A stretch of 64,000 bases of DNA from Candidatus Poribacteria bacterium (GCA_965208675.1 OZ242351.1:2880001-2944000), one strand, 5' to 3'; positions 21,214 to 56,475 are shown, counted from the first letter of the stretch. The notes: generated by a model not told the origin, from the sequence alone. Numbers and translations: made by a program.

Positions 21214-21837
21214 ATGATAATGTCAGATTTGGACGATGAATTGATGCAACGGTGCCAACAAGGAGACATGGAAGCCTTCGATCTCATTGTGCGCCGAAAC
21301 CGAGCGCCTCTCGTCAATTTCATCGGACGATTCTTGGGCGACCAAAACTCGGCTGAGGATTTGGCGCAAGAGACCTTCATACGTATGTTCAAAGCCGCTA
21401 ACCGCTACAGAACCGGGGCGGCAAAGTTCAGTACGTGGATGTACCATATTGCAGCTAATCTTTGCAAAAATGAGCTCCGCAACCGCGGACGGCGCGGCAA
21501 TTTCTTCATTGATAACTTTAACTCTGAGGAACAACTCGGACAAGATAACAGCGTCGGCGAAGATTTAATTGCAACCGCCCCGGCTCACGCCTCCTTGCAA
21601 CCCGAAAACCAACTAGTACAGAAGGAACGGCAACAAGCGGTACAAAATGCAATCTCCAAGCTGCCGGAACGCTATAGATTACCATTGATACTCCGCGATC
21701 TGCAAGACCGATGTTATGAAGAGATTAGCAAAATTTTGAACTTGCCGCTTGGAACCACGAAATCTCGTATCAATCGAGCACGACTAATGCTAAGAGACAA
21801 ATTAAAAGACTTTGTGGAGGAACCATGGACTGCGTAA
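21214..21837 (+). CDS. ECF RNA polymerase sigma factor (SigW/RpoE-like)
   Basis: AEDLAQETF, FSTWMYHIAANLC, YEEISKILNLPLGTTKSRINRAR. Alternative starts at 21205 or 21220. Confidence 0.95.
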   Translation: MIMSDLDDELMQRCQQGDMEAFDLIVRRNRAPLVNFIGRFLGDQNSAEDLAQETFIRMFKAANRYRTGAAKFSTWMYHIAANLCKNELRNRGRRGNFFIDNFNSEEQLGQDNSVGEDLIATAPAHASLQPENQLVQKERQQAVQNAISKLPERYRLPLILRDLQDRCYEEISKILNLPLGTTKSRINRARLMLRDKLKDFVEEPWTA

Positions 21838-22451
21838 GCGTGGAAGAACAATTCTCCGCCTACCTTGAAGACGAACTTGATTATCAAACAACGAAGGTAT
21901 TTGAGTCGCACCTTGCAAACTGCGGTTCGTGTCAAAACGGATTTACGTTATTCCGCGAATCGGTTAATTTATTGCATCAGATGCCGTCAATCGAACCATC
22001 GCCAAACTTCGATTCGGATTTGCAATCTCGCCTCGCTAATGCGCAAATGGATTCGATTCCTTGGTGGCGTCGTACACTTGCGGCTATACGTTCGCAATCA
22101 GTGTGGGCGTTTAGCGGTGTCGCTTTGGGGATTGGAGTATGCGCCATAGCAGGCATTTATCTTTACCAAAACGCATACGTCGGAAACGAAACTATTTCAG
22201 TCGTAAGCACCGAGAATACACCTAATGTCAGACGTTACGACGTGTTGCCGCCGCCAAGAATTCGTGTTGATGATTCATGGCTAGGCAGAACATCACCTTT
22301 AGTTCCTGATTTTGAAAGGCAACGCCTCGTTGAGTTTCCTGCATTTGAGGGGCCAGTTTTTCCCAAAGCAATTCAACCGCAGCGTGTCGAGCGAAATTAC
22401 ATCTTGCAGACGGTCACCTACACAGACGCCCCGACAAGGGGAGGATGGTAG
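21825..22451 (+). CDS. Zinc-finger (zf-HC2) transmembrane anti-sigma factor
   Basis: MDC...FSAYLEDEL...HLANCGSC (HxxxCxxC) then one TM helix; overlaps the sigma stop. Confidence 0.9.
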   Translation: MDCVSVEEQFSAYLEDELDYQTTKVFESHLANCGSCQNGFTLFRESVNLLHQMPSIEPSPNFDSDLQSRLANAQMDSIPWWRRTLAAIRSQSVWAFSGVALGIGVCAIAGIYLYQNAYVGNETISVVSTENTPNVRRYDVLPPPRIRVDDSWLGRTSPLVPDFERQRLVEFPAFEGPVFPKAIQPQRVERNYILQTVTYTDAPTRGGW

Positions 22452-49074: not shown

Positions 49075-49100
49075 TGAAACGGATTTTCCCGTAAAGCGTT
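49075..49100 (+). promoter_or_regulatory. Candidate ECF promoter
   Basis: TGAAAC-N16-CGTT upstream of the second ECF sigma gene. Confidence 0.5.
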
Positions 49101-49160
49101 CGGATTAATAGGAACTATTTGGTTAGCACGTGCTTGATTACGGTAGGGAGGACACCCACT

Positions 49161-49760
49161 TTGGCGCGCCAAATTACGGATGATCCTTCGGATCAGGAAG
49201 ATACCCATTTGGCAACTCTCACGAAAGAAAGGGATGAGTCCGCCTTTCGATTGTTGTATAACAAGCATTTCAGTTGGGTTTTTAGCAAAACGTATCGTAT
49301 GCTTCAAAACCATCAAGATACTGAAGAGGTTTGCTCCGATATCTTTGTCAAAATGTGGGAGAAAATCGATAAGTGGGATACCGACCAGGGAAGTTTTCAA
49401 GCATGGTTAAATGTCGTAGCCAAGCATACTATCATTGATGCAATTCGCAAGAAAGAAAGAATTCGTGAATCGCTGTTGAATGTCGACGCCGATGCTGACA
49501 TGCCAAGTGAGTACGAGGACAATCGGCCAACACCTGACAGATTGATTGAATCTCAAGAAGCTCAGGAGATTCTGGAACAAGCGCTCGCCCAGGTGACTAA
49601 GCCGAATCATCGAACAGCTTGGATATTACGTCATATAGAGGGATGTAGTATCGCAGAGATTTCCCAAACGCTTGACCGAAAAGAAGGTACCGTCAAGATT
49701 TGGATCTTTCGTTGCGCACAAGAGTTGAAACAAATCCTAATCAGAAAAGGCTTGCAATAG
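49161..49760 (+). CDS. ECF RNA polymerase sigma factor
   Basis: GGGAGGA RBS before TTG; DTEEVCSDIF, SFQAWL..VAKHTIIDAIRK, SIAEIS..L....GTVK.WIFR. Confidence 0.92.
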   Translation: MARQITDDPSDQEDTHLATLTKERDESAFRLLYNKHFSWVFSKTYRMLQNHQDTEEVCSDIFVKMWEKIDKWDTDQGSFQAWLNVVAKHTIIDAIRKKERIRESLLNVDADADMPSEYEDNRPTPDRLIESQEAQEILEQALAQVTKPNHRTAWILRHIEGCSIAEISQTLDRKEGTVKIWIFRCAQELKQILIRKGLQ

Positions 49761-49788
49761 ACATACTAAACTTGGAGGGGAGTTAGCC

Positions 49789-50907
49789 ATGACCTTTTGG
49801 AAGAAGTCAAGACCGATTTACAGCAGTGATGAATCGAAGAACGCGGAGATGTTAGAGGTATACACATGTTGGATTAAAGGAGAGAAACTCTCTCGCAAGC
49901 AGAAACGACTGCTTAAATCCAACCAAGACGACACACTGGTAGGGAATTTGAAACCGCTAATCCATTTTGCCCACTACGGCTTTCGCGAAACAGAAAGTGT
50001 CTTACCGCGTCCTGGTGCAAAACAACGAATCGCTGGCGAGCTAACGCGGCGAATTAAAAACAATGCAACTGAAAACCTTCCCGCCGACATGCATTTGCAA
50101 CCGGCTTACAGTATGGATCCGGTTGGAAGTGATAGTGAACTCGCTCACCCGCCTGATGCCGGAAACCCTCCGACGCATCCCCAACAGCAGGTCGATCCCT
50201 CTGCTGAGACAGTAATAATCGAAAGAGAGGGTGAACCCGAAGGAATTACGCTTGCGCCAGTGGAGGGCAGTTGCAATCTGAAATTAAGGACAACCCAGAT
50301 TGATGGAATGGAACAGGAGTATAACATCGCCTTCAAAGAGGTAATCATTGGACGCAGCGTTGAGGCAACGATTCAGTTAAATACCAATGCAGCGGTTTCA
50401 CGCCGGCATGCGTTGCTCACAGCTTACGGCGATAATGTTTACATTACCGACCTTGGCAGCAGCAACGGCACCTACGTTAATGGCGTGCGCATATCTGAAC
50501 CGACTCGGCTTCAGGTCGAATCTACGATAACCATCGTTAAGCAATCGCTTGAAGTCTCCGAAATTCAGCGGGAGGAAGGCGCCCTCCGTCTCTCTTTGAC
50601 GGAATCCGAAGGCGAACATGTTGGACAGGTTTACACCGTCCATATCAAAGAGATTACTGTTGGGCGGGGTAGAGCCGCACGCCTCCGATTCTCCGATCCA
50701 GCCGGGACGCTTTCACGCCTGCATGCAAGATTCGAGTTGAAAAATGGAGATATATATATTACAGATCTCCACAGTACAAACGGCACCTATGTGGATGGCG
50801 TTCCCATAGAAGGTCCGACTGCGCTTCAAACGGGCGCAACCATTCAACTCGGCAGCGTTATCTGTTATGTAGTCGATATTGAACATGCACCGTTAGTTTC
50901 TGTTTGA
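49789..50907 (+). CDS. Tandem FHA-domain protein with putative anti-sigma-like N-terminus
   Basis: Two FHA domains (IIGRS..VSRRHA..DLGSSNGTYVNG; TVGRG..LSRLHA..DLHSTNGTYVDG), Pro-rich linker, no TM; GGAGGGG RBS. Confidence 0.85.
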   Translation: MTFWKKSRPIYSSDESKNAEMLEVYTCWIKGEKLSRKQKRLLKSNQDDTLVGNLKPLIHFAHYGFRETESVLPRPGAKQRIAGELTRRIKNNATENLPADMHLQPAYSMDPVGSDSELAHPPDAGNPPTHPQQQVDPSAETVIIEREGEPEGITLAPVEGSCNLKLRTTQIDGMEQEYNIAFKEVIIGRSVEATIQLNTNAAVSRRHALLTAYGDNVYITDLGSSNGTYVNGVRISEPTRLQVESTITIVKQSLEVSEIQREEGALRLSLTESEGEHVGQVYTVHIKEITVGRGRAARLRFSDPAGTLSRLHARFELKNGDIYITDLHSTNGTYVDGVPIEGPTALQTGATIQLGSVICYVVDIEHAPLVSV

Positions 50908-50919
50908 ATTCTTGAGTGT

Positions 50920-51999
50920 ATGAATCAGAGACAACTTGCGTTAGCCCATTTTAACCGTGCCGCAAAGTATTACCAAAAGGCTATTTATGTCCAGGCAATT
51001 CACCATTACCTTGCGGGCTTGAAAATTGATGCAACACGGGCTGAGATTTACGCAGACCTCGCAAAAGCGTATGAAATGCTGTGCTGCTGGGATCATGCGC
51101 TTAAATCGCTGGAAACTGCGCTGCGATTACGGCCGGGATTCACAACAGCCCTACGGCGGAAACAGCGGATTCTGGAAGAACAAGCGTTTTATGAAGCCAC
51201 GCAAAACCGGCTAGACGTTAATCCAGAACTCCCCGTCCAACATCTTTGGAGCGAAAACGCTACCGACAATACCATTGAAATCGAACACTCACGCTTCACA
51301 CTGACTTGTCCCGACACAACTCCCCAAAGTACGATTTCAGCCGTATGCCAACTAGCTGAACGAATCTACCACGAGGTTGGCGGGATGTTTCAGTGCTATC
51401 CCCGCCAACCAATTCCCATCACCATCGAAGATGCAAGTTTGCCCTCATATTCCACTCTCAATCGCACACTCCCGCCTTGGGCTGCCGCTCAATATAACGA
51501 CGGCATTCAACTCATCCACCGCCCCGGAAACGCTGGAACCGGGATTTTATCGACGTTGATTCGACACGAATGGGTTCATCTAACTGTTGATTTATTAACA
51601 CAAGGACAGTGTCCAAGATGGCTTGATGAAGGGCTTGCTCAAACGATTTCCCGTCCCCTTATGAATTATGAGCACGAATACCTAGAAGATGCAAGACAAA
51701 ATCAACAACTTTTGACAATGGATGTGCTGAAAAAACCATTTCACCAACTCGACTCTCGGAACCGCCGATTAGCATATCTTCAGTCAAGTGCGATAGTGGG
51801 ATATCTGGTAAATCAGTTTGGATTCGCCCGCGTCCGAGAAATTCTCAATCGTATCGGAAACGGAAGTGCCTCTGAAATCGCAATCCAAGAGACTTTGGGA
51901 AAAACACCGGATGAAATTGTAGCCTCGTGGCAATTGGAGAACAACGGGGCAAATCTTGAAACTCAGAGTAACCCTCGTACAGAGAATCCATTTGTATAA
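50920..51999 (+). CDS. TPR + peptidase MA-like (gluzincin) protein
   Basis: N-terminal TPRs; IRHEWVH, PRWLDEGLA, LAYLQS. Confidence 0.85.
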   Translation: MNQRQLALAHFNRAAKYYQKAIYVQAIHHYLAGLKIDATRAEIYADLAKAYEMLCCWDHALKSLETALRLRPGFTTALRRKQRILEEQAFYEATQNRLDVNPELPVQHLWSENATDNTIEIEHSRFTLTCPDTTPQSTISAVCQLAERIYHEVGGMFQCYPRQPIPITIEDASLPSYSTLNRTLPPWAAAQYNDGIQLIHRPGNAGTGILSTLIRHEWVHLTVDLLTQGQCPRWLDEGLAQTISRPLMNYEHEYLEDARQNQQLLTMDVLKKPFHQLDSRNRRLAYLQSSAIVGYLVNQFGFARVREILNRIGNGSASEIAIQETLGKTPDEIVASWQLENNGANLETQSNPRTENPFV

Positions 52000-52488
52000 A
52001 TGGAAACGCTTGATATCGTTATTGTAGTCCTTGCCGGTCTAGGAGGCTTGAATTGTCTTCGAGTTGGCTTTACACGCAGCGTATGGGGAATTGCTGCTAT
52101 CTCCATGGGTATATTTGTTGCGAGTCAACTGTGGCGTGAGCTTGCGTCAATCCTCCAAGCCGTAATTGAGCATGAGGGCATCTCGAAATGGGTGAGTGTC
52201 GTCGCTATTGCAGCCGTGGTCAGCCTAACGGCGGACAAGGTTTTTGAGCAAATTCAGAAAATCATCCGCCGAGGCGTTTTAGGATGGTTGGATAACATTG
52301 TCGGCGGCGTATTTGGAATCGCTGCCAGCGGCGTTATAATTGGATTGGCGCTCATATTGCTGAATCAACATGGCGGTGAAGGGTTTCAAGAGGCTATTGC
52401 AGCCTCCCGTTTCGCACCAACGCTTCTAGATGTTGCCCATCAAGTTTTTGATTTCGGAAAAGAGATAATTGAAAAACAAACTGGTTAA
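52000..52488 (+). CDS. CvpA (colicin V production) family membrane protein
   Basis: LDIVIV...G...GF, LGWLDNIVGGVFG, S.FAP; starts right after the previous stop. Confidence 0.85.
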   Translation: METLDIVIVVLAGLGGLNCLRVGFTRSVWGIAAISMGIFVASQLWRELASILQAVIEHEGISKWVSVVAIAAVVSLTADKVFEQIQKIIRRGVLGWLDNIVGGVFGIAASGVIIGLALILLNQHGGEGFQEAIAASRFAPTLLDVAHQVFDFGKEIIEKQTG

Positions 52489-52643: not shown

Positions 52644-53543
52644 ATGAAATCGTCCTTCCTTGAGTTTTTTCGGGTCTGTTCTTGTTGTCTCCTGCCATTA
52701 TTTTCTCCTCTAGCATATGCCCACTTTGATGCCGAAAATCTGCTCGCATTCGCAGATTCGCTTTTTCAAGAAGAAGATTATCGCAACTCCATTCATGAAT
52801 ATCAGCGCTACCTCTTCCTATATCCCAAAGGCGAAAAAAACGACCTCGTTCAATTTCGAATCGCGGCGGCTTATCAAAACACCGGCCAACTGCAAGTAGC
52901 AATAGAAGCTTACAACGAGTTGATCGCCATCTACCCGATGAGCCCATTGGCCCAGCGGGCAAAATCGAATGTCGCACAATGCCAACTGCTGCAAGGCAAG
53001 GAGTCCGATGCCATTGCGTCGTTGCGCCAGTTCGTATCAGATTCTCCAAATAGTGGGTTAGCTCCCCGTGCACAATTCATTATTGGCATGATCCACATGG
53101 AAAACAGGGACTGGTCAAGCGCTGCACAGGAGTGGAAACAGGTCAGTATCAGATTCGCCCAAACACCGTTCGGCGCGGCGAGTGATCGGCTTTCACGAAT
53201 CGTTCAACATCGTGAATCACTGCCCCGCCGTTCTCCAATAACAGCCGGACTGCTTTCAACGTTCGCTCCTGGGCTTGGACAGGCATATAGCGACCGTTCT
53301 TCCGACGGATTGCGCGCGTTGTTGGCAGTTGTTACCGTTGTCGGCGGCACCATATACTACGTTAACGAGGAACGCTATAGAATTGCGATTCCATTGGCGG
53401 CGATTGGGTGTTCTCTTCATCTGCGCAACATTTATGGCGCCGTACAATCCGCAAAAACCTTTAATCGACAACAGGAAAGTACATTTCTCAACCGACTCAG
53501 AACGCAGATTCACGAATCCAATCTATTCGGCGCTTCAGATTAA
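52644..53543 (+). CDS. Secreted TPR (BamD/YfiO-like repeats) protein with C-terminal hydrophobic segment
   Basis: Signal peptide, repeated Y....YP.S..A..A.F units, LPRRSP..AGLLS...PGLGQ.Y. Confidence 0.75.
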   Translation: MKSSFLEFFRVCSCCLLPLFSPLAYAHFDAENLLAFADSLFQEEDYRNSIHEYQRYLFLYPKGEKNDLVQFRIAAAYQNTGQLQVAIEAYNELIAIYPMSPLAQRAKSNVAQCQLLQGKESDAIASLRQFVSDSPNSGLAPRAQFIIGMIHMENRDWSSAAQEWKQVSIRFAQTPFGAASDRLSRIVQHRESLPRRSPITAGLLSTFAPGLGQAYSDRSSDGLRALLAVVTVVGGTIYYVNEERYRIAIPLAAIGCSLHLRNIYGAVQSAKTFNRQQESTFLNRLRTQIHESNLFGASD

Positions 53544-53928
53544 TAGTTTCCGGAGAAACACTGTTCGTGAAAAATCCTTCTCCCGACAGTCGAAGATTAA
53601 TCAATCGAATAGAATCTATTGAGCGAACAGCGGCGGATTAACCGAATAAGGATGGATCAATTGAGCGAATAGCGAAGGCGATAGTCTTCGTATAGCCTTT
53701 TCATACTCCTCACAAAACACCCTTGCCATGTCCGCTGTCTGTGAAAAAATGAATTAAATCCACACGCCGCGAATACAGTAACTATGCGGTCTACAACACT
53801 CCTGGTTGCCTAACGAAACAGAAAATACACCTGTCCGCTTTTGTCTCATTTTGAGGGTCGCCGGACGCCGAAACTGCCATTTAACGTATAAAAAAAACCG
53901 CTTTCTCAATCGGAGTGCCCGTTTTTCT

Positions 53929-54840
53929 ATGTTTTTTCTGCTCTTTACTCTCATGGTCATTATCTGTCAACAGGCTAAGGCAGAGCAAGACGATTCGTCT
54001 CTCCGATATGCCGACCACCTCTTCAATCACGGAAACTATGAATCATCACTGCTTGAATACAAGCGCTTCCTCTTTGACCATTCGGATACAGATGTGGATG
54101 ACTTTGTACGTTACCGTATCGCACAAGGTTACTTTTATCAAGGAAATAGCGCAAAGGTCCAGCAGATGTTCGAAGAACTAATGAAGACGGATCCGGATTC
54201 CCCGCTCAATCCTCACGCTCAACTGATGTTGGGAAAATCCTACCTTGACGCCGGAGAGTATACGAGTGCCCGTTCCAATTTTTCCAAGATTATTCATGCT
54301 GATACAGATGTTCAGCTATCGGCACAGGCACAATATCTAAAGAGTTGGTGTTTTGTTCATGAGTGGAATTGGATGAAGGGGATAGCGGAATTTCGAAAGG
54401 TCGGCAGGTTCCGGCCTGATACCTCCCTCAGTATGGTATCCAACCAGCTTGCAGATACGACGTTAGCCAATATTCCCTTGCCGCTCAAGTCGCCCGACAG
54501 CGCCCATTGGCTGTCCACTTTTTTTCCCGGATTCGGACAAATCTACGTAGGCCAACGCCGTAACGGACTCATCTCCGCCGCAGTCAATGCCGCGCTTATA
54601 TATCTAGCGGTTGACGCAACTCGTGACGAGCGGTATGTAGATGCGGTAGGGATTTCTCTATTAGGTTTGTGGCATAATTGGCGGGTTCGGTCCAGTGCGA
54701 AAGCCTTGGCGGGCGAACACAATCGCAAACTGGCAATGAATCTGATTTACGAATTAAAGAAAAAATCTACCGCTTTTAAGCCTATGAATTTCGAACTGCC
54801 GGAAGTTGAAGCTATAGCCCCCGCTTCACTGGTGCCATGA
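53929..54840 (+). CDS. Paralogous secreted TPR protein
   Basis: Same architecture (YADHLF, EYKRFLF, PLKSP..A..LS...PGFGQIY); start uncertain. Confidence 0.72.
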   Translation: MFFLLFTLMVIICQQAKAEQDDSSLRYADHLFNHGNYESSLLEYKRFLFDHSDTDVDDFVRYRIAQGYFYQGNSAKVQQMFEELMKTDPDSPLNPHAQLMLGKSYLDAGEYTSARSNFSKIIHADTDVQLSAQAQYLKSWCFVHEWNWMKGIAEFRKVGRFRPDTSLSMVSNQLADTTLANIPLPLKSPDSAHWLSTFFPGFGQIYVGQRRNGLISAAVNAALIYLAVDATRDERYVDAVGISLLGLWHNWRVRSSAKALAGEHNRKLAMNLIYELKKKSTAFKPMNFELPEVEAIAPASLVP

Positions 54841-56475
54841 GTGCTGACTGAGAATATCATCCTGGCCCAACTCATCGAACAGAGATGTGACATTGCTGCC
54901 GTCTGCATCCATAACCCAGATACCGAAGCTGCCGTTGCGGTCGCTGCTAAAAGCAATCTTCGTCCCGTCAGGAGACCAACACGGATAGCCATTGTAACTG
55001 TCCTCGCTGGTCAGGGTGGTTTGATCCCGTGAAAACAAATCTAATACACATATCGCAGCTTGGCTCAGAGAAACTTCTTTGGTAAACACCAACTTAGAAC
55101 CATCCGGACTCCAATCCGGGTGGAGTTCGGTGTCCAAGCCCTCCGTTAACCGTTCAACGCCGCCTTCAATTACCGACGCGATGACAACCGGTGCTTGGGG
55201 CGGTTGAAACTCCTCTTGCGCTGCACGAATTAATTCATGCTGTTTTGTCTCCGGTTCCGGCACTGGTACCGGCACCGGTGTTGGCTCCGGTTCTGGCTCC
55301 GGTTCCACTTCCGGTTCTGGCTCCGGTTCTGGTTTCGGTTCTACTTCTGGTGGGAGTGCCGCGTCAGCGGCAAGAAATGCTTCAATGTCCACCACAAAGA
55401 GATTTCTATCATAGGAATACGCAATCTGGGTGCTGTCAGGCGACCAAGTCGGTTTCGATTCTGCCTCGCAGAGGGAAAGTTGAATGCGATTTTCTCCGTT
55501 TGCATCCATGATGTAAATCGACGGTTTTCGAAGCGCCTTGGCATGAACGAAAGCAATGCGGTCCCCATCAGGTGACCAAGCCGGATGCCGATCATTAAAA
55601 TTGACGCCGCTGATTGACCTCGTATTGCCGCCGCGGCTATTCATTACATAGATTTGTGGTGGGGCACCGCCTTCTGAACGACTGAAGATAATTTGCCCGC
55701 CATTCGGTGACCAGCTAGGTTGGTCGTCGAAAAAGTGGGTAAGCGCTGTCTCGTTTGCACGGTTTGCGTTAATGACTGAAATCCCAAAAAAGTCCTCGCC
55801 GGCAACATCTCCCCGAGCGAAGACAATTTGCCCTGCCATTTGGCGTCGAATAGAAATTTTTTGTACCACATTTCTGTCGCCGATAGTGATACCCGGCATG
55901 TTTACTGTGTCATAACCCGGCTTTTCTGCCGTCAAATCGTATTGTCCATCGGAAACCGGGGCAATTATGTATTGTCCCGTAGCGTTCGTAACTGACGCAC
56001 GATCGCCCAATGTAACCAGGACATTTCGCACCGGATTGCCGTCGTTAGATATCACCTTGCCTTCAAACTTAACGCCGGGTTCAAGGCGGAAATCAACGGT
56101 TGCCGAATCTTTGCGAGTGACGCTCACTGCCGCTCGTTGTTCCAGATAACCAAGAGCTAAAATGCGCAGGTTATAGTCGCCGCTTTTGAGCGATTCAAAC
56201 CTAAAGATGCCATTAGCATCGGTAGTTGTAGTTGCGACCTCCTCAAAGATGGCTTTTTCGTCTGTAACGCTCTTCTTCGTAGACAACGTGACTGTCGCAT
56301 TTACAATTCCAGCATGGGTGACCAAATCTGTAACGGATCCTGAGATGACTCCCTCCGGCGATGACACTGTCCTCGGTCCGACATCCTCGGAATCGTCACC
56401 ACCGCAACCAACAAAAAACCCTAACAGCACAAAAACAAACAGACCAAGGTAAGAGTAACGGATTAATCTCTCCAT
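54826..56475 (-). CDS. Lipoprotein with carboxypeptidase-regulatory-like domains and TolB-like PD40 repeats
   Basis: Lipobox FFVGC, ISGSVTD / TDANGIFRF, repeated P.WSPDG, (PE)n insertion. Confidence 0.85.
   Translation of the reverse strand: MERLIRYSYLGLFVFVLLGFFVGCGGDDSEDVGPRTVSSPEGVISGSVTDLVTHAGIVNATVTLSTKKSVTDEKAIFEEVATTTTDANGIFRFESLKSGDYNLRILALGYLEQRAAVSVTRKDSATVDFRLEPGVKFEGKVISNDGNPVRNVLVTLGDRASVTNATGQYIIAPVSDGQYDLTAEKPGYDTVNMPGITIGDRNVVQKISIRRQMAGQIVFARGDVAGEDFFGISVINANRANETALTHFFDDQPSWSPNGGQIIFSRSEGGAPPQIYVMNSRGGNTRSISGVNFNDRHPAWSPDGDRIAFVHAKALRKPSIYIMDANGENRIQLSLCEAESKPTWSPDSTQIAYSYDRNLFVVDIEAFLAADAALPPEVEPKPEPEPEPEVEPEPEPEPTPVPVPVPEPETKQHELIRAAQEEFQPPQAPVVIASVIEGGVERLTEGLDTELHPDWSPDGSKLVFTKEVSLSQAAICVLDLFSRDQTTLTSEDSYNGYPCWSPDGTKIAFSSDRNGSFGIWVMDADGSNVTSLFDELGQDDILSQHSWHQ
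55250..55350 (-). repeat. 6-bp tandem repeat encoding a (Pro-Glu)/(Pro-Val) linker
   Basis: ccggtt/ctggct units translate as PEVEPKPEPEPEPEVEPEPEPEPTPVPVPVPEPE. Confidence 0.85.

Follow-up and report, generated by a model that had tools for sequence, protein, structure and literature searches.

Sigma factors of the extracytoplasmic function (ECF) type belong to the principal signalling systems of bacteria. In Mycobacterium tuberculosis, the ECF sigmas SigE and SigH are paired with the soluble anti-sigmas RseA and RshA, whose hold is modulated by the Hanks kinase PknB, and RseA, once phosphorylated, is then degraded by ClpC1P2. RsiW of Bacillus subtilis and MucA of Pseudomonas aeruginosa, the anti-sigmas of SigW and AlgU, are single-pass membrane proteins that are cut by PrsW/RasP and AlgW/MucP, respectively, and in GarA and OdhI an FHA domain is switched by binding the protein's own phosphorylated N-terminal tail. 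The review PMC8999054 describes two kinase-linked modes of ECF control, namely direct phosphorylation of the sigma and, for SigE-RseA and SigH-RshA, phosphorylation of a soluble ZAS anti-sigma by PknB, and it gives conformational change, partner switching and a mechanosensing complex as mechanisms of soluble anti-sigmas. Direct phosphorylation activates the ECF43-type sigmas (PMC8999054 and PMC13147305). Here, we describe a four-gene operon from a Candidatus Poribacteria bacterium (genome G000; a single contig of 4.89 Mb) that encodes an ECF sigma factor, a soluble protein with two FHA domains, a TPR-gluzincin peptidase and a CvpA-family membrane protein. It is a probable phosphothreonine (pThr)-coupled ECF/anti-sigma system, the mechanism of which we infer below. 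The operon lies in a window of 64,000 nt (G000:C1:2880001-2944000), which is the whole stretch of DNA analysed and to which positions refer unless a genome coordinate is given.

The locus shares features with each of its closest described relatives and departs from all of them. Like the mycobacterial pairs, it has an ECF sigma with a soluble candidate anti-sigma whose hold would be modulated by a Hanks kinase, but RseA and RshA are zinc-binding kinase substrates without a phospho-reader, whereas here the candidate anti-sigma has no zinc motif and carries FHA domains, and a PP2C phosphatase gene belongs to the predicted regulon. Coupling of ECF transcription to a Hanks kinase is also the likeness to ECF43 systems (EcfP/PknT of Vibrio parahaemolyticus and EcfK/PknS of Xanthomonas citri). 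Those sigmas lack the acidic DAED of region 2.2 (Ser/Thr instead) and an anti-sigma and have the kinase gene next to them, whereas here a D-T-E-E is kept, a candidate anti-sigma is present and the nearest Pkinase match is about 66 kb away. SigW-RsiW and AlgU-MucA resemble the locus in their homologous sigmas and in an accompanying protease gene; the cytoplasmic domains of RsiW and MucA rank high among the weak fold matches of the N-terminal domain of the FHA protein (the N-domain), and the promoter here, TGAAAC-N16-CGTT, differs little from the TGAAAC-N16-CGTA consensus of SigW. In contrast to RsiW and MucA, the FHA-tagged protein here is soluble, and the protease encoded next to it is a cytoplasmic TPR-gluzincin. 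The FHA domains here have their best structural matches in GarA, OdhI and the FHA domain of DgcB, in which, too, an effector segment at the N-terminus precedes a C-terminal FHA domain, and this common layout makes an intramolecular pThr switch plausible; unlike the protein here, they regulate metabolic enzymes or act as a diguanylate cyclase and have neither an anti-sigma-like domain nor an ECF partner.

None of these systems joins an anti-sigma-like domain with FHA domains. The ECF literature searched yielded no anti-sigma that bears an FHA domain, although part of it was judged from titles and the beginnings of abstracts, and the words 'FHA' and 'forkhead' are absent from the main text and the available part of the supplement of PMC7826278, tables excluded. 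A preliminary description of this DNA, made from the sequence, had stated that the architecture was unfamiliar from described ECF groups, and the literature searched agrees with it. What would be new is the way in which an ECF/anti-sigma pair receives its input, through an FHA module, and the phosphatase feedback that is predicted for it.

The four open reading frames (ORFs) lie on the + strand over 49119-52488 and are separated by 28, 12 and 0 nt. They comprise the sigma gene (longest ORF, 49119-49760), the gene of the 372-aa FHA protein (49789-50907; two FHA stretches, Pfam 1.7e-38), the gene of the 359-aa TPR-peptidase (50920-51999) and that of the CvpA-family protein (52000-52488; Pfam Colicin_V 3.4e-21, 76.2 bits against a cut-off of 29.3), whose start codon directly abuts the peptidase stop codon. 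Taking a Kyte-Doolittle mean of at least 1.6 over 19 residues as a hydrophobic segment, we detected such segments in CvpA and no such window in the sigma, the FHA protein (maximum, 1.41) or the peptidase. The close spacing of the four genes, as first described, is thus confirmed by the ORF coordinates, and so is the absence of a transmembrane helix and of a zinc motif from the protein in the anti-sigma position, given its hydropathy maximum and the lack of a zf-HC2 match. The start coordinate given at the time, 49075, turned out to fall on the opening T of a TGAAAC box that is -35-like and conserved.

That these genes form a unit is supported by their conserved order, which had been named beforehand as a test. 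We sampled 41 genomes of the same order, all of which (41/41) contain a match to the FHA protein, and fetched 26 loci from 24 of them. The sigma gene lies directly 5' of the FHA gene in 26/26 loci and the peptidase gene lies 3' of it in 25/26, the sole exception being L007, which has no peptidase gene within its 1.5-kb flank. The complete four-gene order was found in all 14 loci long enough to show it. Conservation of gene order to this extent is far beyond chance. In sequence, the sigma (63-77% identity across the order) is far more conserved than the FHA protein (32-60%). The sigma and FHA genes also adjoin in two further loci of family f2 (L046 and L047). Beyond the order, five loci from other orders of the same class all have the adjacent pair, with the peptidase next in four of them and CvpA adjoining the module in none (0/5). 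The order sigma, FHA protein, peptidase is therefore kept class-wide in Poribacteria.

The first gene encodes an ECF sigma factor. Its true start is probably the TTG at 49161, because a ribosome-binding site, GGGAGG (49146-49151), precedes this codon and the orthologs begin MARQ..., and the resulting protein (49161-49760, + strand) has 199 aa. Pfam assigns Sigma70_r2 to residues 46-114 (4.5e-18) and Sigma70_r4_2 to residues 163-198 (1.8e-07), and the sigma70-ECF model TIGR02937 gives 94.9 bits, its cut-off being 42.9; as in other ECF (group 4) sigmas, there are sigma-2 and sigma-4 domains only, in about 200 aa. The best solved relatives are SigE (9m9d_F, E 5.7e-17), SigW (5wuq_A, 2.8e-14) and AlgU (8z6g_B, 1.7e-10), all of them partners of class I anti-sigmas. 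The acidic motif of region 2.2, D-[T/S/A]-E-E, is kept in 24/24 aligned sigma sequences and reads D-T-E-E here. Because this motif is kept, the sigma is not of the ECF43-like kind, which depends on phosphorylation for binding core RNA polymerase, and it should be intrinsically competent for the core enzyme. The G000 genome has 50 ORFs with sigma-70 region 2. Many of these occupy very long frames (roughly 350-1246 aa), pointing to ECF-like sigmas that are greatly extended at the C-terminus.

Upstream of the sigma gene lies an ECF-type promoter, TGAAAC-N16-CGTT (49075-49100, + strand; -35 box at 49075-49080, -10 box at 49097-49100). Scanning with a relaxed motif, TG[ATC]AAC-N15-17-CGT[ATC], located it 105-155 nt ahead of a conserved sigma codon in 26/26 loci from 24 genomes, with nine other matches in the 341,930 nt of these loci, at least two of which are the lipoprotein promoter described below (L018 and L019). 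The motif was also found in six of seven loci from other orders and genus g17 of family f2, and the seventh, interrupted by N, was recognized by eye. In G000, it precedes one of the 50 sigma70_r2 ORFs, namely that of the window sigma. The boxes have the form associated with ECF autoregulation (TGAAAC-N16/17-CGT[TA], with an AAC-containing -35 and a CGT-containing -10). ECF sigmas usually read their own promoter, and TGAAAC-N16-CGTT is probably read by the window sigma itself.

If the sigma reads its own promoter, it follows that its regulon would hold a Ser/Thr phosphatase and peptidoglycan hydrolases. The strict motif has 26 matches genome-wide in G000 against about 19 expected by chance on our own arithmetic; because the count is near chance, single matches mean little and a regulon needs cross-genome conservation. 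Two predicted targets, each preceded by an intergenic match, show it across families. The first is a gene for a 247-aa PP2C protein (Pfam PP2C_2, 2.1e-16), for which the relaxed motif occurs in the 250 nt upstream, on the sense strand, in 20/22 orthologous loci, with one other match in the remaining 156,010 nt. These loci include five from family f2 (L070, L071 and L073-L075). The second is an operon in which a gene for a 162-aa lipoprotein is followed by a gene with two LysM domains and Peptidase_M23 and then by an SLT-domain gene; here the motif lies upstream in 28/30 loci, with one other match in 195,698 nt. In two genomes of family f4, this operon is divergent beside the sigma operon, and its promoter is also seen there. 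Less conserved candidates are a CofD/YvcK-like gene (G000:C1:979035, - strand; motif conserved in two of five loci) and a gene for a 338-aa protein with no Pfam match (G000:C1:2341965, + strand; conserved in one of two orthologous loci), and further strict-motif candidates are an Nramp-like transporter gene, a 172-aa ORF and a TPP-enzyme gene. Among intergenic sequences, we also noticed a near-identical 26-mer, TGAAACTGGGGCAAAT[G/A]GACGCCGTT, in two copies 10 kb apart (G000:C1:4148324 and 4158190, + strand), where long ECF-like genes are clustered on the other strand; a repeated regulatory element is one possibility.

The second gene carries the elements of a pThr reader. In the full-length AlphaFold2 (AF2) model, the FHA protein consists of N-terminal helices, a disordered linker (residues 94-158; pLDDT below 50) and a tandem of FHA domains (pLDDT above 90), which occupy residues ~160-262 (FHA1; 50266-50574, + strand) and ~265-368 (FHA2; 50581-50892, + strand). 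The Pfam FHA score is 131.3 bits, and both domains keep the GR, SR.H and NGT residues. Foldseek places them closest to OdhI, GarA, FhaA and the FHA domain of DgcB (E 3e-7 to 6e-6; chains 8p5x_G, 6i2p_E, 4qcj and 6hc1_B at E 3e-7 to 3e-6), and FHA2 is the conserved pThr-reading domain, canonical in form, of this family. In an alignment of 30 sequences, the GR, SR.H and NG residues of FHA2 are intact in 26, the four exceptions being f2-type proteins of about 210-220 aa with one truncated FHA-like domain. Of the 20 sequences that have an FHA1, seven retain the pThr residues in it, including the window protein. Given these counts, the C-terminal FHA domain is the ancestral, selected reader and the tandem a local feature. 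Within the linker, a short linear motif, QPAYSxxxVGSDSEL (residues 103-119; 50095-50145, + strand), is strongly conserved despite the disorder (pLDDT about 40 in the full-length model), and its G113 is nearly invariant. Docking of this motif onto the FHA tandem was considered and found to be unsupported by the model.

Both FHA domains detected in G000 belong to this one protein, and the genome has three Hanks kinases. One of these is a protein of 668 aa, in which no hydrophobic stretch can be made out by eye; its orthologs are full-length and occur in 41/41 relatives. Since these include family f2, a phylogenetic profile of the kinase against FHA integrity is uninformative.

The remaining part of the FHA protein, the N-domain (residues 1-94; 49789-50070, + strand), is a candidate class-I-like anti-sigma domain. 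Its gene is co-oriented with that of the ECF sigma across a 28-nt gap, as is usual for class I anti-sigmas, and anti-sigma genes canonically come straight after an autoregulated ECF gene (PMC7826278). The AF2 model of the domain has helices at residues 13-29, 36-45, 54-62 and 77-94. Class I anti-sigmas are laid out as a three-helix bundle with a separated fourth helix. When the model was aligned with VIA-align to 48,161 PDB representatives, three anti-sigma cytoplasmic domains were among the top 50: MucA (8z6g_A, rank 4, Z 4.5, root-mean-square deviation 2.4, 51 residues aligned), RsiW (5wuq_C, rank 6, Z 4.3, deviation 7.9, 68 aligned) and PupR (5cam_A, rank 39, Z 3.5). The partners of the matched RsiW and MucA chains, SigW 5wuq_A and AlgU 8z6g_B, are also among the best solved homologs of the sigma. 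Alignment by hhalign with seven zf-HC2 anti-sigmas of G000 brought helices 1-4 into register (E 0.037), and the nearest named clusters in the ESM Atlas are zf-HC2 (0.85), RskA_N (0.84) and NepR (0.83). The zinc motif H-x3-C-x2-C is absent from the domain, which has no zf-HC2 match and no His/Cys pattern at the aligned positions. A PxPGAKQRI segment, in which the preliminary description had seen a likeness to the last helix of class I anti-sigma domains, lies where the fourth helix is predicted to begin in the AF2 model and falls on the fourth-helix region in the hhalign alignment, in keeping with that guess. Overall, four weak but concordant lines from sequence and modelling make it somewhat more probable than not that this is a class I-like anti-sigma domain.

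The N-domain belongs to a small family. A profile of the N-terminal 120 residues matched 141 of the 151 genomes that were sampled from the whole phylum and gave no match in the three genomes of families f8 and f9 (0/3). Against 1.84 billion representative proteins, it retrieved 24 at E <= 0.001, with lengths of 64-376 aa plus an odd 1152-aa protein without FHA; Pfam FHA was found in 15 of the 17 that were scanned, and the other seven were fragments of 64-120 aa. Because there are 24 representatives only and most bear FHA, the architecture is lineage-restricted. No fusion of sigma and N-domain occurs among the 24. An orphan 267-aa paralog with the N-domain and the linker motif (L027:3971-4774, + strand, on G027:C147; also on G030:C79) differs in its C-terminal part, which matches nothing in Pfam, and adjoins a solute-binding-protein gene rather than a sigma gene.

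The third protein is a cytoplasmic TPR-gluzincin, a predicted metallopeptidase. Pfam finds TPR_2/TPR_1 and Peptidase_MA_2 (4e-14, 53.3 bits against a cut-off of 32.4), with HEWVH at residues 216-220, a third ligand at E237 and a downstream E-G-L-A. As in gluzincins (clan MA), H216, E217, H220 and E237 are present, and they are invariant in 15/15 aligned orthologs, as are TPR residues; the description of this gene as a TPR protein with an HExxH...EG peptidase thus holds, the motif and the downstream E-G being invariant throughout. By sequence, the TPR part resembles the peptide-binding TPRs of Hop/STI1, PP5 and SGT. It is possible, from the gene neighbourhood, that the peptidase cleaves the FHA protein.

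We consider there to be about an even chance that the locus is an autoregulated ECF operon in which the soluble FHA protein is the cognate inhibitor, coupled to pThr and subject to PP2C feedback. The four helices of the N-domain would hold the sigma in the manner of a class I anti-sigma, and the C-terminal FHA domain would read pThr written by a Hanks kinase, for which the 668-aa cytoplasmic protein is the best candidate. Binding of pThr would either free or re-capture the sigma. Free sigma would transcribe from TGAAAC-N16/17-CGTT, thereby expressing its own operon, the PP2C gene and the operon for the lipoprotein, the LysM-M23 endopeptidase and the SLT protein, and PP2C would erase the phosphate, which would close the loop with negative feedback. 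In physiological terms, the cell would remodel its peptidoglycan. The TPR-gluzincin and CvpA may provide a proteolytic input that acts on the disordered linker or its motif, or may merely be co-expressed output.

A number of results weigh against this reading. Each of the four lines for an anti-sigma domain falls below its threshold when taken alone: the VIA-align Z values of 3.5-4.8 tie with those of unrelated helical chains, the hhalign probability of the zf-HC2 match is 1.4%, the ESM Atlas scores lie under that tool's 0.9 level, and the AF2 pLDDT of the domain is 65.7 when modelled alone and 55-87 within the full-length model. Residues 1-135 have no Pfam match at E <= 10 (hence also no zf-HC2 motif), the N-domain profile gave chance-level matches to PDB sequences (best E, 0.2), and Foldseek of the model against the PDB returned nothing at E <= 0.001. 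The anti-sigma-like N-terminus of the preliminary description is thus supported by the concordance of these lines, and no significant sequence or Foldseek match was found for it. The linker that might dock onto the FHA domains has a pLDDT below 50, and the assignment of the promoter to this sigma assumes autoregulation. No kinase or phosphatase gene adjoins the operon, the nearest kinase being the one about 66 kb off, and genus g5, which has the full FHA protein, has no ortholog of the 247-aa PP2C at E <= 1e-20 (0/16 genomes). Of the 20 orthologs with an FHA1, 13 have it in degenerate form, and in family f2, the largest sampled, a single truncated FHA lacks GR and N, so that the two intact domains first described hold for the window protein and do not extend to the family. 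Despite this loss of pThr residues, f2 keeps the operon, the 668-aa kinase and the PP2C promoter, and control of the sigma is therefore not pThr-dependent everywhere. Control by Ser/Thr-kinase signalling through an FHA anti-sigma, as originally proposed, thus gains from the motif upstream of the PP2C gene and loses from FHA1 and f2.

Another explanation takes the FHA protein to be an anti-sigma with a proteolytic signal: the TPR-gluzincin, for which CvpA may serve as an anchor or gate, would recognize the acidic linker motif and cleave the anti-sigma, and the FHA domains would be stabilizing or vestigial. Family f2 fits this, as it lacks the pThr residues but has the peptidase, the linker motif and the N-domain. 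The active site and TPR residues of the peptidase are invariant, the TPR part is like peptide binders (Hop/STI1, PP5 and SGT), the peptidase gene travels with the pair class-wide and its stop codon abuts the CvpA start, and the linker is disordered yet contains a strongly conserved motif. However, CvpA does not adjoin the module in other orders, the pThr residues of FHA2 are under purifying selection outside f2, and a PP2C gene in the predicted regulon, f2 included, is hard to explain without phospho-signalling; we consider purely proteolytic control unlikely.

A further alternative concerns the sign of the partnership. The FHA protein could be a positive adaptor whose N-domain docks on the sigma or RNA polymerase and whose FHA domains recruit an autophosphorylated kinase or another pThr protein, such that the sigma is activated or localized and not sequestered. 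Strict conservation of the pair shows a partnership and not its sign, and FHA domains commonly bind activated kinases. Yet with its region 2.2 motif the sigma should bind core RNA polymerase unaided, positive autoregulation normally needs a brake, and the weak likenesses of the N-domain are all to inhibitors (MucA, RsiW, PupR, zf-HC2, RskA and NepR), making an adaptor quite improbable. Alternatively, the four genes could be a co-expressed envelope-stress output, with the sigma controlled elsewhere, at the level of transcription or through another regulator of the genome, and the FHA protein acting on a non-sigma target, much as FhaA and FhaB/FipA act on cell-wall or division proteins in mycobacteria. 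The peptidoglycan-related regulon and the absence of a significant sequence match between the N-domain and anti-sigma families are in keeping with this, as is the best NCBIfam match, FhaB/FipA (117.1 bits, below the cut-off of 125), but that match spans the FHA domain alone. Moreover, the N-domain occurs almost only ahead of FHA and beside this sigma, in every locus examined bar the one orphan paralog, and the gene sits right after an autoregulated ECF gene, where anti-sigmas are canonically found; such an output operon therefore seems rather improbable too.

A more specific form of the preferred pThr-coupled anti-sigma mechanism, a form that as a whole we regard as unlikely, is a self-reading anti-sigma in a loop of writer, reader and eraser. 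FHA domains have a common preference for a hydrophobic residue at pT+3, and T26 in helix 1 of the N-domain lies within Y-T-x-x-[ILVF], which fits it; the motif is kept in 29/30 sequences, with Glu replacing T26 in the remaining one. We speculate that T26 is the acceptor: the 668-aa kinase would phosphorylate it within the anti-sigma domain, the protein's own C-terminal FHA domain would capture pThr26 as in GarA and OdhI, and the sigma-binding surface would collapse, releasing the sigma. The sigma would then induce peptidoglycan hydrolases and PP2C, the phosphatase would reset the switch, and the TPR-gluzincin would use the linker motif to dispose of the anti-sigma. The ETTS-type acceptor motif of GarA and OdhI is absent from the FHA protein, in which T26 is the sole candidate acceptor noticed. 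Within the sigma itself, Thr138, in a PTPD of the linker between sigma-2 and sigma-4, was also considered as an FHA target, the position being Gly in f2 with its degenerate FHA; it was rejected on finding Leu or Ser there in other orders with intact FHA and Lys in L005.

Several neighbouring genes were noted in passing. Two paralogs whose TPR repeats are YbgF/BamD-like and whose C-terminal part is hydrophobic (52644-53543 and 53806-54840, + strand), one with a weak DUF5683 match, begin 155 nt after CvpA; homologs also follow the operon in several families (L013-L015, L023 and L025), and no promoter motif was seen ahead of the two genes. Convergent to them is a gene for a 549-aa protein in which two CarboxypepD_reg domains occur together with PD40 beta-propeller repeats and a spacer rich in Pro and Glu (54826-56475, - strand). 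Elsewhere in the window, at ~21286-21935 (+ strand; G000:C1:2901286-2901935), there is a second ECF sigma, of canonical type, and after it comes a zf-HC2 anti-sigma that has a membrane segment.

If the proposed mechanism is true, a pThr reader inside an anti-sigma together with an eraser phosphatase in the regulon would be a new input logic, and in the self-reading form an FHA-gated soluble anti-sigma would add a class to the known modes of ECF regulation. The module is compact and has two well-conserved predicted target promoters, those of the PP2C gene and the lipoprotein operon. For Poribacteria, an uncultivated, marine lineage, it would offer a first functional handle on regulation, and it points to kinase-controlled remodelling of peptidoglycan through M23 and SLT enzymes.

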